IMG/VR virus record: IMGVR_UViG_2681813236_000004
Source of the DNA: an uncultured virus (IMG/VR IMGVR_UViG_2681813236_000004)
Taxonomy: Duplodnaviria > Heunggongvirae > Uroviricota > Caudoviricetes
Reading direction: 5' to 3' (one strand)
DNA length: 64,000 nt
The notes under the pieces are model-generated. The model did not search any database, was not told the DNA's origin, and saw nothing but the letters and a program-made list of their open reading frames with translations. Positions 30-58,156 of this stretch are shown in pieces. Positions within the stretch are counted from its first letter, which is position 1. Each line of letters begins with the position of its first letter. The position numbers and the translations under genes were made by a program.

Positions 30-581
30 AAATGACGACGCCGGAAACTTCTTATAAAGCGTGGAAACAGCCACATCATAGATGATTGCAACCTGCTTAC
101 GGGGGATGCCATTCTCCAGCAATCGCCGCATTTGCTGCCATGTTTCTTCTTGGTATTTAGGCCGACGCCCACCTATACGACCTTCTGCGCGAGCTGCATC
201 AAGTCCAGCGCGTGTACGTTCAACGATAAGCTCACGTTCCATTTCTGCCAGCGCTCCCATTACGTGAAAGAAAAAGCGCCCCATTGGTGTACTGGTGTCG
301 ATAGAGTCAGTGAGACTCCGGAAATTAATTCCTCTGTCACGCAGCTCTTCCACCAGCACAACCAAGTGACGCATGCTGCGCCCAAGACGATCTAACTTCC
401 ATACGACCAGGGTGTCACCTCTGGAAAGCATACGCAAAACCTTTTTTAGCCCAGGGCGTTCAGTCTGTTTGCCGCTCGCCTTATCCTCAAAAATTAGCTC
501 ACATCCTGCGCTTTCAAGGGCATTTCGTTGCAAAGCAGTGTTTTGTTCATTTGTTGATACGCGTACATAGCCGATCAGCAT
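21..581 (-). CDS. cin: Cin serine DNA invertase; the Fis enhancer (sis) is expected within its 5' part
   Basis: GYVRVST catalytic Ser motif, KLDRLGRS, C-terminal HTH; adjacent cix site. Confidence 0.97.
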   Translation of the reverse strand: MLIGYVRVSTNEQNTALQRNALESAGCELIFEDKASGKQTERPGLKKVLRMLSRGDTLVVWKLDRLGRSMRHLVVLVEELRDRGINFRSLTDSIDTSTPMGRFFFHVMGALAEMERELIVERTRAGLDAARAEGRIGGRRPKYQEETWQQMRRLLENGIPRKQVAIIYDVAVSTLYKKFPASSFQS

Positions 582-55563: not shown

Positions 55564-56391
55564 TTATTTCACCGGAACAAACGGAACAGCGGTATTACTG
55601 GTCATATACTGCGGTAATGTACCGTTCCATTTGTTGATCGCTTCCAACTCCATAACACCGGGGTTCTGGCGCAGAGCTTCACCACGTAAACGAATGGCAT
55701 CAGCTTCGGCCTGGGCTTTTGTGCGAATAGCATCAGCCTGTCCGGCAGCTTCCGCGCGCAGCATGTTGGCCTCTGCTTCACGTTGTTTGACCTCTTGCTC
55801 GCGTTGCAGAGTTTTTTGGTTTGCCGTGACTTTGGCGTTAATACTGTCAATAACTGTTGGCGGGTATTCTGGCTTACCTACATAAGAGAGGCTCATCACC
55901 TGAATGCCGATTGGCGTCATTTCTTCCTGAATGTCTTTAAGGGCTGCATCAAGCAATTCAGATTTGCCACCGTCGATAAATTTGTCGGTGGTCATTTTGC
56001 TGGCTAACCGGTTCAGAGCATCTGCAACCTTCTGGCGTAGATCGGTATCAGTAATATCATCTACACCTTTGCGATAGGTCTGAAATACCGTTGTGACTTT
56101 TGCTGGATCAACCTTGTAGGCTACGCCGATGTGGTAACCAATGGTTGTTCCGTCGCTCATCTGGAAGCTGAACGGCTCATCGTATGTCTTCATTTGCTTA
56201 AAGGTCGGGAAGATATAAACTTCAGTATTCAAGCCTGTCCAGTAGCGACCAACGCCAACTACTTCACCGATACCTTTATCATCCCCCAGCTTATTTACTT
56301 TGATCCCTACGTTACCTGGCTCTACCCGATCGCATCCGGTCAGACATAAAGAACCCAAAATAATCGCTGCACTAATCAACGTTTTTTTCAT
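55564..56391 (-). CDS. SPFH/band-7 domain lipoprotein
   Basis: LTGC lipobox, RVEPGNVGI, A/E-rich coiled coil, KWNGTLP. Confidence 0.88.
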   Translation of the reverse strand: MKKTLISAAIILGSLCLTGCDRVEPGNVGIKVNKLGDDKGIGEVVGVGRYWTGLNTEVYIFPTFKQMKTYDEPFSFQMSDGTTIGYHIGVAYKVDPAKVTTVFQTYRKGVDDITDTDLRQKVADALNRLASKMTTDKFIDGGKSELLDAALKDIQEEMTPIGIQVMSLSYVGKPEYPPTVIDSINAKVTANQKTLQREQEVKQREAEANMLRAEAAGQADAIRTKAQAEADAIRLRGEALRQNPGVMELEAINKWNGTLPQYMTSNTAVPFVPVK

Positions 56392-56608
56392 TAATTAATT
56401 TCCTGGTTTTTTCACGAAAAAAGACTACTGCGAAAGCCGGGTAAATGAGCGCGAGAAGGACTCCCAACAATACAAGTATTGTGCTGTTAGATGAGATCAT
56501 ATTTGGCAAAAGCCAAACATACAGAACCAGTGACACAATCAAACAGAGGACGGCATAAATATATAACCGCACCCATAGCGTTCGACATTTGTTCGGATTG
56601 TTCTGCAT
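56372..56608 (-). CDS. small two-TM membrane protein
   Basis: 78 aa overlapping the SPFH gene start. Confidence 0.75.
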   Translation of the reverse strand: MQNNPNKCRTLWVRLYIYAVLCLIVSLVLYVWLLPNMISSNSTILVLLGVLLALIYPAFAVVFFREKTRKLINEKNVD

Positions 56609-56641
56609 CCTCTCACTCCATTATTTAACGAATAAAAAAGC

Positions 56642-56761
56642 TGCGGTGCCGGGTGCCTCCCGGTATCCTTTGGCTGGTTATCTACCGTGGACGGGGAAAC
56701 AAGGAGAAATAATGGACAGATATAACCATTTCCCCGCGTGCGCTTAGCCGCATTCACCGCA
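56642..56761 (-). ncRNA. c4/CI-like tRNA-shaped RNA, unit A
   Basis: ends pair GCGGTG/CACCGC; GGTGAATGC head; CCGGG-aggca-CCCGG 3' hairpin. Confidence 0.6.
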
Positions 56762-56924
56762 ACGGAAAGAGCATTCTTGGTGGACCTGTAGATTGGGATA
56801 TGAACCCGTTACAGGAGAATGCTCTTACCTGTTACGTGCTCCGTTTCGTGGAGCTAACGGCGGGTGATCAGACCGCACCAGACTGGACTTATTTCAGCGT
56901 TATGCTCATGCCAGAGAATCAAAC

Positions 56925-57022
56925 TGTGATGGTCGGTGCTGAACTCCGACACAGGGTTGTAGCAAGCCCCGCAAAGCGCGCACTACTGTAGTTGCGGCAC
57001 ATCAGCCTGTGCATTCACCACA
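56925..57022 (-). ncRNA. c4/CI-like tRNA-shaped RNA, unit B
   Basis: ends pair TGTGGTG/CATCACA; GGTGAATGC head; GTCGG..CCGAC 3' hairpin. Confidence 0.6.
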
Positions 57023-57320
57023 ATGTTGAGAACACTGGTTGTCACGCTGCCTCGCGACATTTATTCATAGATTGGGATATGACCCCGTTACGCCAATGTT
57101 CTCAACGTTGTAGTGCCGGTTACGGTTCCGGCCAGGCCTCTTCCTCAACGGGGTGTTCTCCATACGGACTACCGTTTATTGGTCGTTCCTGCGGTTTATG
57201 TTGTGAAGCCAGATGCTTATCTTCTGGTTGCTTCAAAGAGCTGCACTTCATCACAACGGTAAGAGCACTCGATGCATTTAAGCCAAGCCCCATAAGGGAG
57301 AATGCCCTTACCTGTTGTGC

Positions 57321-57396
57321 TGGTGCCGGTTAACGGACTCGAACCGCTGACATCCTGCTTACAAGGCAGGCGCTCTACCAACTGAGCTAAACCGGC
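57321..57396 (-). tRNA. trnT: tRNA-Thr(TGT)
   Basis: 76-nt cloverleaf, CT-TGT-AA loop, CCA end. Confidence 0.96.
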
Positions 57397-57398
57397 AT

Positions 57399-57474
57399 TG
57401 GCGATGGTGGATGGATTTGAACCATCGACCCGTTGATTAACAGTCAACCGCTCTAACCGCTGAGCTACACCATC
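57399..57474 (-). tRNA. trnA: tRNA-Asn(GTT)
   Basis: 76-nt cloverleaf, CT-GTT-AA loop, CCA end. Confidence 0.96.
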
Positions 57475-57756
57475 ACTTGCCGGGTACGTCTCCGGCGAGG
57501 GCTTCCACCTCCGTATGCTTTTCGGCGCACCGCGCCCTGACTGCAATTCGGTAACAGGGGATGCATAATCCTGGCTTCCAGCGTGATTAGCGCCTTCAGC
57601 ATGACGGGATATACCCGTAAATTCGTGGAACTGTACCCAAAGTGCTGTTAAGCACCGCTGTTACGCTGAAAAGAAGACGCAACAGGAAAGGACGCTGACC
57701 AACAGATGGCCCCTTCTCGTTCATCTGGTTAATCACACCAGCGCCCTTACCTGTTG

Positions 57757-57950
57757 TGCCTCCCCGTTCCCTAATACACAGACGGGGACACTCTGTGGTC
57801 GATTTTTTGACGGGGGACGACTCATACCCCGTGGCGTCTGGCTTCTTAGGCCGCTACCATCATCAGATTATCGTTTGCATTTACTTTAATGGTCAGTTTC
57901 TAAACCGCCGCAAAGTCGCTAACCATGACGAAAACCCTGAAAAAAACGCC
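57757..57950 (-). ncRNA. tmRNA-like mRNA domain with tag frame ANDNLMMVAA
   Basis: AAAGTAAAT-GCA AAC GAT AAT CTG ATG ATG GTA GCG GCC TAA at 57878-57846 with flanking pseudoknot-like pairings. Confidence 0.6.
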
Positions 57951-57965
57951 CACCCGAAGATGGGC
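57940..57965 (-). terminator. intrinsic terminator in the leader of the tRNA-ban operon
   Basis: GCCCATC-ttcg-GGTGGGC then GTTTTTTT. Confidence 0.8.
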
Positions 57966-58128
57966 AAACTGGAAGCTCGTAACGCACTTCGGCGTTGCCA
58001 CTTAGGCGCATGGTCAACCTGGCAACTCGGTGGTTTGTCTGGGAGGACTAGGCCCAGCCATGCTTACCGCCGCGCCTGTCGCGGCTAACAGCTAAATCGC
58101 TCTATAAATCACGATTCATTGAGGCGAT

Positions 58129-58156
58129 ATTACACTAATAAATTTATTAGAGCAAT
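58129..58156. promoter_or_regulatory. bivalent C1 operator at the promoter of the tRNA-ban operon
   Basis: ATTACACTAATAAATTTATTAGAGCAAT, overlapping inverted operators. Confidence 0.93.

Follow-up and report, generated by a model that had tools for sequence, protein, structure and literature searches.

What does a phage encode in a region that is crowded with hairpins and transfer RNAs (tRNAs) and appears to hold no protein gene? The question is raised by a stretch of 64,000 nucleotides (nt) from an uncultured member of the Caudoviricetes (IMG/VR record IMGVR_UViG_2681813236_000004; the whole stretch is called the window below), in which an array of tRNA-shaped non-coding RNAs separated by repeated stems had been predicted at 56640..57760 from the sequence alone. 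The array is present, and its stems, hairpins, GGUGAAUGC units, and two tRNAs lie where the original prediction put them, but it begins about 370 nt upstream of 57760, at the P1ban promoter. The region is a series of exchangeable non-coding RNA modules, which are likely separated by cleavage at four conserved hairpins. Its head module, common to several unrelated phage families, likely puts a phage tag template in the place of that of the host transfer-messenger RNA (tmRNA), the RNA of ribosome rescue. This antisense-to-tmRNA RNA with a tag of its own is the most informative module of the array; it was missed by the original interpretation, which as a whole is partly supported.

The 1.55 kb at 56600..58150 are 90-99% identical to P1, P7, D6, and related phage-plasmids, and the array corresponds to the untranslated leader of the ban operon of P1, with the transcript corresponding to the minus strand of the window. 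The P1 record gives the order as a C1-controlled ban promoter, a “dicF-like region”, trnA, trnT, then tciABC, trnI, and ban. Ninety-three P1-type loci were gathered, and the 81 with the full 1.5 kb serve as the relatives referred to below.

The head module (57936-57761, minus strand, about 176 nt) ends at the foot of stem 1 and reads as a tmRNA message domain with an antisense 5' part. Its tag frame (57878-57846) was recognised because a weak Rfam match to permuted tmRNA pointed there; tmRNA-type scores in the window are 25.3 bits (cut-off 47) and 15.7 bits (cut-off 50), and those of relatives reach at most 34.7, all below cut-off. The tag has 10 codons plus a stop in 36 of 36 unique sequences and ends in Ala in all but one of them, and single-base codon differences at positions 1, 2, and 3 number 514, 101, and 965 (pairwise counts, which are not independent). 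A pyrimidine at -5 and an A at -4 precede the Ala resume codon in 70 of 71 unique copies (at pattern-found loci -4 to -1 are fixed by the pattern, and -5 is free); these are the frame-setting bases of tmRNA (PMC8363625, PMC2481249; these and the other papers cited by accession are cited from excerpts). Behind the tag, two tandem pseudoknots are found in 27 of 37 representatives as against 4 of 370 shuffles, the remaining ten showing one under a strict rule, and their stems vary in compensatory fashion across the family (CCGA/UCGG, CCAG/CUGG, CCAA/UUGG, GUCG/CGAC). Upstream there is an in-frame stop 3-13 codons away and no start codon in 42 of 48 copies, which rules out ordinary translation of the tag for most of them.

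The resume context and a 10-codon AND...A(A) tag are common to the head RNA, tmRNA (SsrA, RF00023), and the coding piece of two-piece permuted tmRNA (RF04321, RF01849), as are a stop-codon hairpin and the pseudoknots behind it. The head RNA differs in having no acceptor strand, D-loop, or helix 2; its 5' end is instead antisense to host tmRNA. No motif of a tRNA-like domain (acceptor stem with G3-U70, D-loop, T arm, CCA) was found near the module, and a search of the 73%-complete phage record for a partner tRNA-like piece gave no RF00023 match; ARAGORN at default settings called no tmRNA either. The head RNA can be likened to the coding part of a two-piece tmRNA, yet it fails as a tmRNA because it is without the tRNA-like part.

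BLAST of the 200-nt head region matched 410 phage records, 54 of them at 80% coverage or more, and copies occur in P1, N4-like Schitoviridae, Ackermannviridae, HK620, Drexlerviridae, and Ounavirinae phages; most of those fetched stand in tRNA clusters or non-coding leaders, and they carry no annotation. Among 5426 complete E. coli genomes 670 were matched (547 with at least 80% coverage), while a strict pattern found only six stretches in GTDB. Looser searches added little: the 115 metagenome loci read, of about 1700, yielded no new member of the family, only one copy of P1 type and several true tmRNA genes, and two loose viral patterns gave mostly chance matches (19 loci with two known members, one new one, and two tmRNA genes; 58 loci with two members, one being a contig already found). 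One P1-type copy (L120:647-861) has its antisense domain replaced and one pseudoknot deleted with the tag frame kept, and is a candidate for a natural loss-of-function version. Odd “tRNA-Cys” annotations adjoin the module in phiMAM1 (L095:1280-1371, 92 nt) and Bp4 (L096:1674-1749, anticodon ACA); neither has an Rfam tRNA match at cut-off, and they are probably further tRNA-like modules.

The 47-nt antisense domain at the 5' end is predicted to form a duplex of -46 kcal/mol with host tmRNA, covering both strands of stem 2 of the pseudoknot PK1, the bases contacted by SmpB, and the resume codon. Each of the 43 unique 5' domains (228 of 229 elements) pairs best from host nt 56, with a mean z-score of -4.8, and 37 of the 43 beat all of 60 shuffles; the phage-host pair L229/L234 was left out of this comparison. 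For six domains the mean at the true site is -43.5 kcal/mol, against a background of -22.5 +/- 3.4 with a best value of -33.9 in 1306 windows. Every one of the 43 favours host tmRNA over the tag region of the same RNA, and an intramolecular origin of the antisense part, by pairing with its own tag, is rejected on that ground. Changes at free positions mostly keep pairing through G-U (7 of 7 opposite host nt 87, 5 of 6 opposite 88, 8 of 9 opposite 60). The spacer from the last pair (host G57) to the phage resume codon is 12-13 nt, close to the 13-14 nt of the host's own from C76, and the free head RNA is predicted to keep its resume codon hidden in a fold that host RNA then displaces. The 5' end at the start of the antisense part is set by a stem arm (30), a terminator-like hairpin (20), or a promoter (12) in 62 of 83 contexts.

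The antisense part also tracks the type of host tmRNA. Short forms, antisense to nt 79/80-107 only, occur in the Mooglevirus phages Sf16 and Moogle and in Erwinia phage phiEa21-4, each with a promoter-like site, a 10-codon tag, and pseudoknot-like stems; in the Mooglevirus phages the stem-2 hairpin, including its tip, is located 3' of the anti-tmRNA RNA. These three copies, all from Ounavirinae, pair better with enterobacterial tmRNA than with any of 12 other gammaproteobacterial tmRNAs; two distant IMG/VR copies prefer the other gammaproteobacterial type, L435 (first seen as L380) in 12 of 12 comparisons and L397 in 10 of 12; L397 was found by a pattern that fixes part of the antisense and L435 was not. 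The other resume type is present in 61 of 201 sampled genomes. Directly upstream of the L435 copy is a GGUGAAU-headed unit, and 3' of the L397 copy is a tRNA-like gene whose anticodon region holds a long insertion (L397:1272-1386, minus strand; Rfam 49 bits, missed by ARAGORN).

We put at about 0.5 the probability that the head RNA pairs with host tmRNA, masks the resume codon there, and presents a resume codon and tag of its own. The tag has no start codon and carries every signal of trans-translation, so that ribosomes are best explained as arriving by way of the host tRNA-like domain, and the antisense part as both a tether and a silencer of the host template. Transcription from the P1ban promoter, which in P1 is known to be repressed by C1, would partly read through the terminator-like hairpin ahead of the module. 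RNase III would cut each stem, and the lower arms, to judge from homology and geometry, would re-pair as acceptor-like ends, possibly trimmed by RNase P or exonucleases. The products would be two tRNAs, cloverleaf scaffolds displaying variable inserts, hairpin tips, and the ~176-nt anti-tmRNA RNA. The last of these, self-folded while free, would be opened by host tmRNA, with host nt 56-106 becoming paired as computed; the phage UAAAU-GCA would then emerge 12-13 nt past the duplex, about where the host signal stands relative to PK1. The host tRNA-like domain and SmpB would enter the stalled ribosome, and translation would resume on the phage tag. In tmRNA itself PK1 can be replaced without loss of activity, and the length of the spacer is tolerant (PMC2481249).

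Another proposal is that the head RNA is a pure antisense inhibitor that covers the host resume codon and so shuts down trans-translation, its tag being a relic or serving only to titrate ribosomes, S1, or SmpB. Such a role would suit the coverage of host nt 85-92 by the duplex in long and short forms alike, and a phage tmRNA consisting of the tRNA domain only is reported to inhibit host tmRNA (PMC4131195, PMC11915505). We think it unlikely: inhibition needs none of the features kept across phage families (tag length, stop, Ala ending, resume context, and two pseudoknots), and at least one lambdoid hybrid phage, lambda-immP22, requires trans-translation (PMC2862035).

For a tag swap, the likeliest purpose would be to keep ribosome rescue running when the message part of host tmRNA has been cut or disabled, much as phage tRNAs stand in for host tRNAs that have been cleaved. 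RelE and MazF cut tmRNA. Repair of the message domain would fit the accompanying tRNAs, phage tRNAs being known to counter anticodon nucleases (PMC10264068), the need of lambda-immP22 for trans-translation, and the prediction of tmRNA-targeting defences (PMC10542128). The benefit is nevertheless the weakest step, and several results count against the swap as a whole. The phage tags still resemble degradation tags, and the gain from exchanging them is therefore not obvious. In the short forms (Ounavirinae, L397, L435) PK1 stays unpaired, and setting of the register by PK1 is therefore not general. Taken alone, the window's antisense domain has a modest margin (-45.9 kcal/mol, against a best of -42.4 in 2000 background windows), and the positions opposite host nt 74 and 61 pair in only 20 and 34 of 48 copies. 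The net computed gain from binding between full-length RNAs, with pseudoknots not modelled, is only -8.3 kcal/mol. Many columns of the alignments are fixed by the search patterns, the module is absent from lambda 27000-48502, and the RNA data examined gave no observation of RNA ends, strand, or levels.

Table 1. Modules of the array and neighbouring features of the ban operon, in window coordinates.
Feature	Position	Strand	Remarks
P1ban promoter and operator Op72ab	58127..58156	-	C1-controlled (known), drives the array; P1 annotation via BLAST match
DicF-like leader	57938..58125	-	P1 “dicF-like region” annotation; terminator-like hairpin at its end
Antisense domain, 47 nt	57890..57936	-	complementarity with nt 56-106 of host tmRNA: PK1, resume signal, and opening codons of the tag
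Resume signal U-A-A-A-U and 10-codon tag ANDNLMMVAA-stop	57846..57889	-	resume codon 57878, no in-frame start
Helix-5-like hairpin and two tandem H-type pseudoknots	57761..57845	-	pseudoknots ~57832-57798 and 57797-57761; compensatory stems across the family
Stem 1, RNase III-type	57672..57764	-	z -5.2; lambda hairpin homology; predicted cuts after 57750 and 57684
Unit 1	57475..57668	-	ends in T-arm-like hairpin 57496-57479
tRNA-Asn(GUU), P1 trnA	57399..57474	-	ARAGORN, Rfam, P1 annotation
tRNA-Thr(UGU), P1 trnT	57321..57396	-	ARAGORN, Rfam, P1 annotation
Stem 2	57252..57320	-	z -5.0
Unit 2a, minimal GGUGAAUGC cloverleaf member	57202..57255	-	T-like arm 57227-57209
Unit 2b	57113..57200	-	ends in hairpin 57132-57115
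Stem 3	57016..57115	-	z -6.5; tip 57087-57074
Unit 3, cloverleaf scaffold	56925..57022	-	7-bp acceptor-like stem, D-like arm, variable middle, T-like arm
Unit 3b	56838..56922	-	with stem 4, the slot of tRNA-Ser(UGA) in some relatives
Stem 4	56757..56838	-	z -5.6; tip 56808-56795
Unit 4, STnc100-like cloverleaf	56642..56761	-	swappable insert with CUCCUU motif
Distal operon part	55262..55536	-	CAU-anticodon tRNA 55536-55461 and hairpin 55288-55272 before ban

The four related long stems noted originally are borne out: all fold on the minus strand, with minimum free energy z-scores of -5.0 to -6.5 (100 dinucleotide shuffles per stem), and their arms share CAAC.GG.AAG(A/G)GCAUU ... (A/G)UGCUCUU.CCGUUG, the differences among the four being compensatory. 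Each is an imperfect helix of about 20 base pairs, and the P1-like arms match a lambda hairpin (44787-44863) directly behind the terminator of the late leader. Processing of lambda late RNA by RNase III was reportedly described by Daniels et al. in 1988 (listed in PMC7547250). The in-vivo cuts, which we take to lie 209 and 270 nt from the start, would fall on opposite arms of that hairpin and leave a 2-nt 3' overhang. By analogy we infer that each P1-type stem is cut in the same way, with predicted cuts in stems 2 to 4 after 57311 and 57258, after 57104 and 57025, and at 56764. The lower arms can pair, as read from the sequence, either within a stem or across a unit, and in the second case an acceptor-like helix would hold together the ends of each released unit. 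The earlier proposal of one precursor cut into several small RNAs is well supported by this anatomy, by the homology to the lambda and Qin hairpins, and by the exchange of cassettes with real tRNAs; no cut site was observed. Hairpins of 5 base pairs and CCGG type are found at 56664-56649, 56950-56932, 57132-57115, 57496-57479, and 55288-55272, and three patterns derived from these five sites match nothing else in the window.

Between the stems, cassettes are gained, lost, and swapped, giving 36 architectures among the 81 relatives. Several have a 206-nt piece with tRNA-Ser(UGA) in place of unit 3b and stem 4, others have tRNA-Tyr inserted between tRNA-Asn and tRNA-Thr, and some 30 have an extra 216-nt block 3' of tRNA-Thr. 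The 5' part of unit 1 is replaced in some relatives, the insert of unit 4 has alternative versions, and unit 2b has an 89% match in Citrobacter phage phiNP. Heads of the GGUGAAUGC type with paired ends are present in units 3 (57022-56925) and 4 (56761-56642), for which folding z-scores are -0.47 and -2.14; six other pieces range from +0.13 to -1.48. Units 1, 2b, and 3b show either a hairpin at the end or local matches elsewhere, and as single sequences they fold no better than shuffles, and unit 2a is not favoured by such folding either. Because folding of single sequences does not single out the units, the support for them is comparative. No tRNA features (anticodon arm, invariant bases, CCA) were called in units 1-4 by ARAGORN or Rfam, and the description “tRNA-shaped” holds for the GGUGAAUGC units while going unsupported beyond the terminal hairpin for the others.

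These modules might act in cis only, as scaffolds for antitermination, stability, or processing of the ban transcript and its tRNAs and as recombination joints, with the tRNAs as the sole stable functional small RNAs. All of them do lie in one operon leader, they are exchanged at stem borders, and several fold like shuffles, but complementarity that tracks the RNA of the host, and copies with their own promoters, would be left unexplained; we regard this as improbable.

The cloverleaf of unit 3 belongs to a family of which an estimated 310 or so stretches are present in IMG/VR, with fixed acceptor-like, D-like, and T-like arms and a hypervariable middle. An alignment of 31 sequences (28 family members and three window units; head and tail are fixed by the pattern, and kinship is ignored) has 97.1% of cells paired and two-sided changes at 8 of 17 pairs, and none of 500 shuffles was as good. 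Of 76 members, 34 lie 3' of a stem arm and 14 have a terminal CCA, which is absent from the window copies; no Rfam family covered unit 3 at cut-off in 13 family loci (20 sources scanned). In two lambdoid-like contigs (L250 and L265, ~401-500, minus strand) the cloverleaf directly precedes an apparent gene start, and the scaffold is therefore not confined to tRNA clusters. The setting in these contigs presumably resembles an N leader.

The cloverleaf units and stem tips could alternatively be decoys or mimics for defence nucleases that target tRNA, as the original prediction also suggested, and this would be compatible with a tag swap by the head RNA. The tips vary among the stems, and the one support that the earlier idea acquired is that those of stems 3 and 4 are identical to the anticodon arm of the host initiator tRNA at 12 of 14 bases; the motif is found nowhere else in the window and sits on a different stem in other phage contigs. 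Exchange of units with real tRNAs, covariation in the arms of the unit-3 family, and the known action of phage tRNAs against anticodon nucleases are in keeping with decoys. At loop positions 32 and 38, however, the bases are not those of the host, few family members encode CCA, no target nuclease was identified, and the search pattern itself dictated the tip motif, so that no conservation can be read from it. On balance decoys are a doubtful proposition.

Unit 4 has a different affinity. It matches STnc100 (RF02076) at 33 bits (E 1e-4, cut-off 47), a partial match to model positions 31-147 of 206, and its head and tail are homologous to a Qin element between dicF and dicB. The GGUGAAU head, terminal CCGGGAGGCACCCGGCACC arm, and closing stem are common to unit 4 and the STnc100/PasD prophage small RNAs, from which it differs in its partial, sub-threshold coverage of the model. 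CUCCUU, which in the RNA is anti-Shine-Dalgarno-like, is present in two different inserts, including that of P7; on the plus strand the insert (56712-56747) has a strong ribosome-binding site and an 11-codon open reading frame (ORF). Units 3 and 4 could therefore be imagined as C4/CI-type or Hfq-type antisense regulators, in which the cloverleaf displays a variable seed against mRNAs. The likeness to STnc100, to which PasD, with RIL-seq targets, is related (10.64898/2026.05.13.724894, in excerpt), the homology to the Qin dicF locus, and the recurrent CUCCUU speak for such regulators. P1 C4, P4 CI, and phage M3 RNA are cloverleaf-like with an acceptor-like stem and a T-like arm, as are units 3 and 4, and RNase P cleaves C4 and M3 RNA (PMC11143913). 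The kinship with C4 that had been suggested nevertheless fails in Rfam, with no C4-family match even at E<=10, and the units lie outside an immI region. In the 74.6-kb phage record, which is 73% complete, only scattered exact 11-mers and no striking cis target were found, and shorter target boxes may be present; a 21-nt host-target search, which did not establish an mRNA target of the unit-4 insert, returned the phage copy itself and, in two genomes, one site with three mismatches. Regulation of this kind seems to us unlikely.

Turning to the operon itself, the -10 hexamer of P1ban is at 58132-58127, and a terminator scan places the hairpin with its U run at 57966-57940. The leader is 77.6% identical to Qin DNA upstream of dicF over about 95 nt (E 1e-14), with no match to DicF (RF00039) in the window; at gathering cut-off Rfam finds three tRNAs and nothing else. 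The distal tRNA (55461-55536) is called tRNA-Met(CAU) by ARAGORN, and its homologue in P1 is tRNA-Ile2 (trnI). Between unit 4 and trnI (55564-56608, minus strand) are genes for a 78-amino-acid membrane protein (PHROG 1130) and a 275-amino-acid lipoprotein (PHROG 200), which occupy the place of P1 tciABC, a cargo slot; the lipoprotein we take to be of the SPFH type. Two 18-nt stretches 2.2 kb apart on one transcript (57575-57558 and 55320-55303, minus strand) are 83% complementary, possibly reflecting long-range pairing across the operon, or chance. Contigs from four RNA studies span the array, with ends near the promoter that differ (58143 and 58158), and strand, ends, and level cannot be read from contigs; raw reads from four runs are host tRNA reads on the trnI region, with none on the array.

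P1 annotates two antisense ORFs, plp and upl, in the array region, and conservation for the sake of these opposite-strand genes would be a further explanation, to which the annotation and the two small PHROG families of unknown function that include upl lend something. It is largely refuted, and we give it very little weight: plp is intact in only 51 and upl in 60 of the 81 relatives, plp has indels and no PHROG match, and substitutions at codon positions 1, 2, and 3 are 16/18/20 for plp and 5/4/3 for upl. In the absence of a third-position bias, the earlier statement that the region has no credible protein gene stands.

Set beside known systems, the array apart from its head is a less surprising variation on phage leaders that undergo processing, and its cloverleaf family is uncatalogued. 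Qin dicBF resembles it in the leader and in the head and tail of unit 4, and the lambda late leader in the arms of its hairpin; the array differs from both in having four tandem stems, with tRNAs and cassettes between them. The head RNA is without a known counterpart. The halves of tmRNA are normally in one gene or in two matched pieces. Phage tmRNAs are described as full-length or as the tRNA domain only (PMC4131195, PMC11915505), and the mycobacteriophage DS6A tmRNA, with the tRNA-like domain only, is likewise a phage-borne half aimed at host rescue; the head RNA keeps the opposite half, the message domain, and adds a tether by base-pairing. A full-text literature search, most subscription literature being outside its reach, found no description of an antisense-tethered tag template.

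More broadly, many phages of enterobacteria and other gammaproteobacteria may encode a trans-acting template that is clamped to host tmRNA by its antisense part and leads rescued ribosomes to a phage tag, giving a chimeric tmRNA, and that travels in arrays punctuated by RNase III sites together with tRNAs and mimics of tRNA parts, an RNA-only toolkit against defences that target translation; we hold this tentatively, at a little short of even odds. If it is true, a phage RNA with only the message half, docked on a host molecule, would be a new control of ribosome rescue, and it would imply that tmRNA is attacked by a defence not yet recognised, or else that rewriting the tag brings a benefit. 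The head RNA lies unannotated in the classic laboratory phage P1 and has matches in many E. coli genomes, so that the proposal is directly testable, and such a guide would also be of use as a tool for steering trans-translation to a template of choice.

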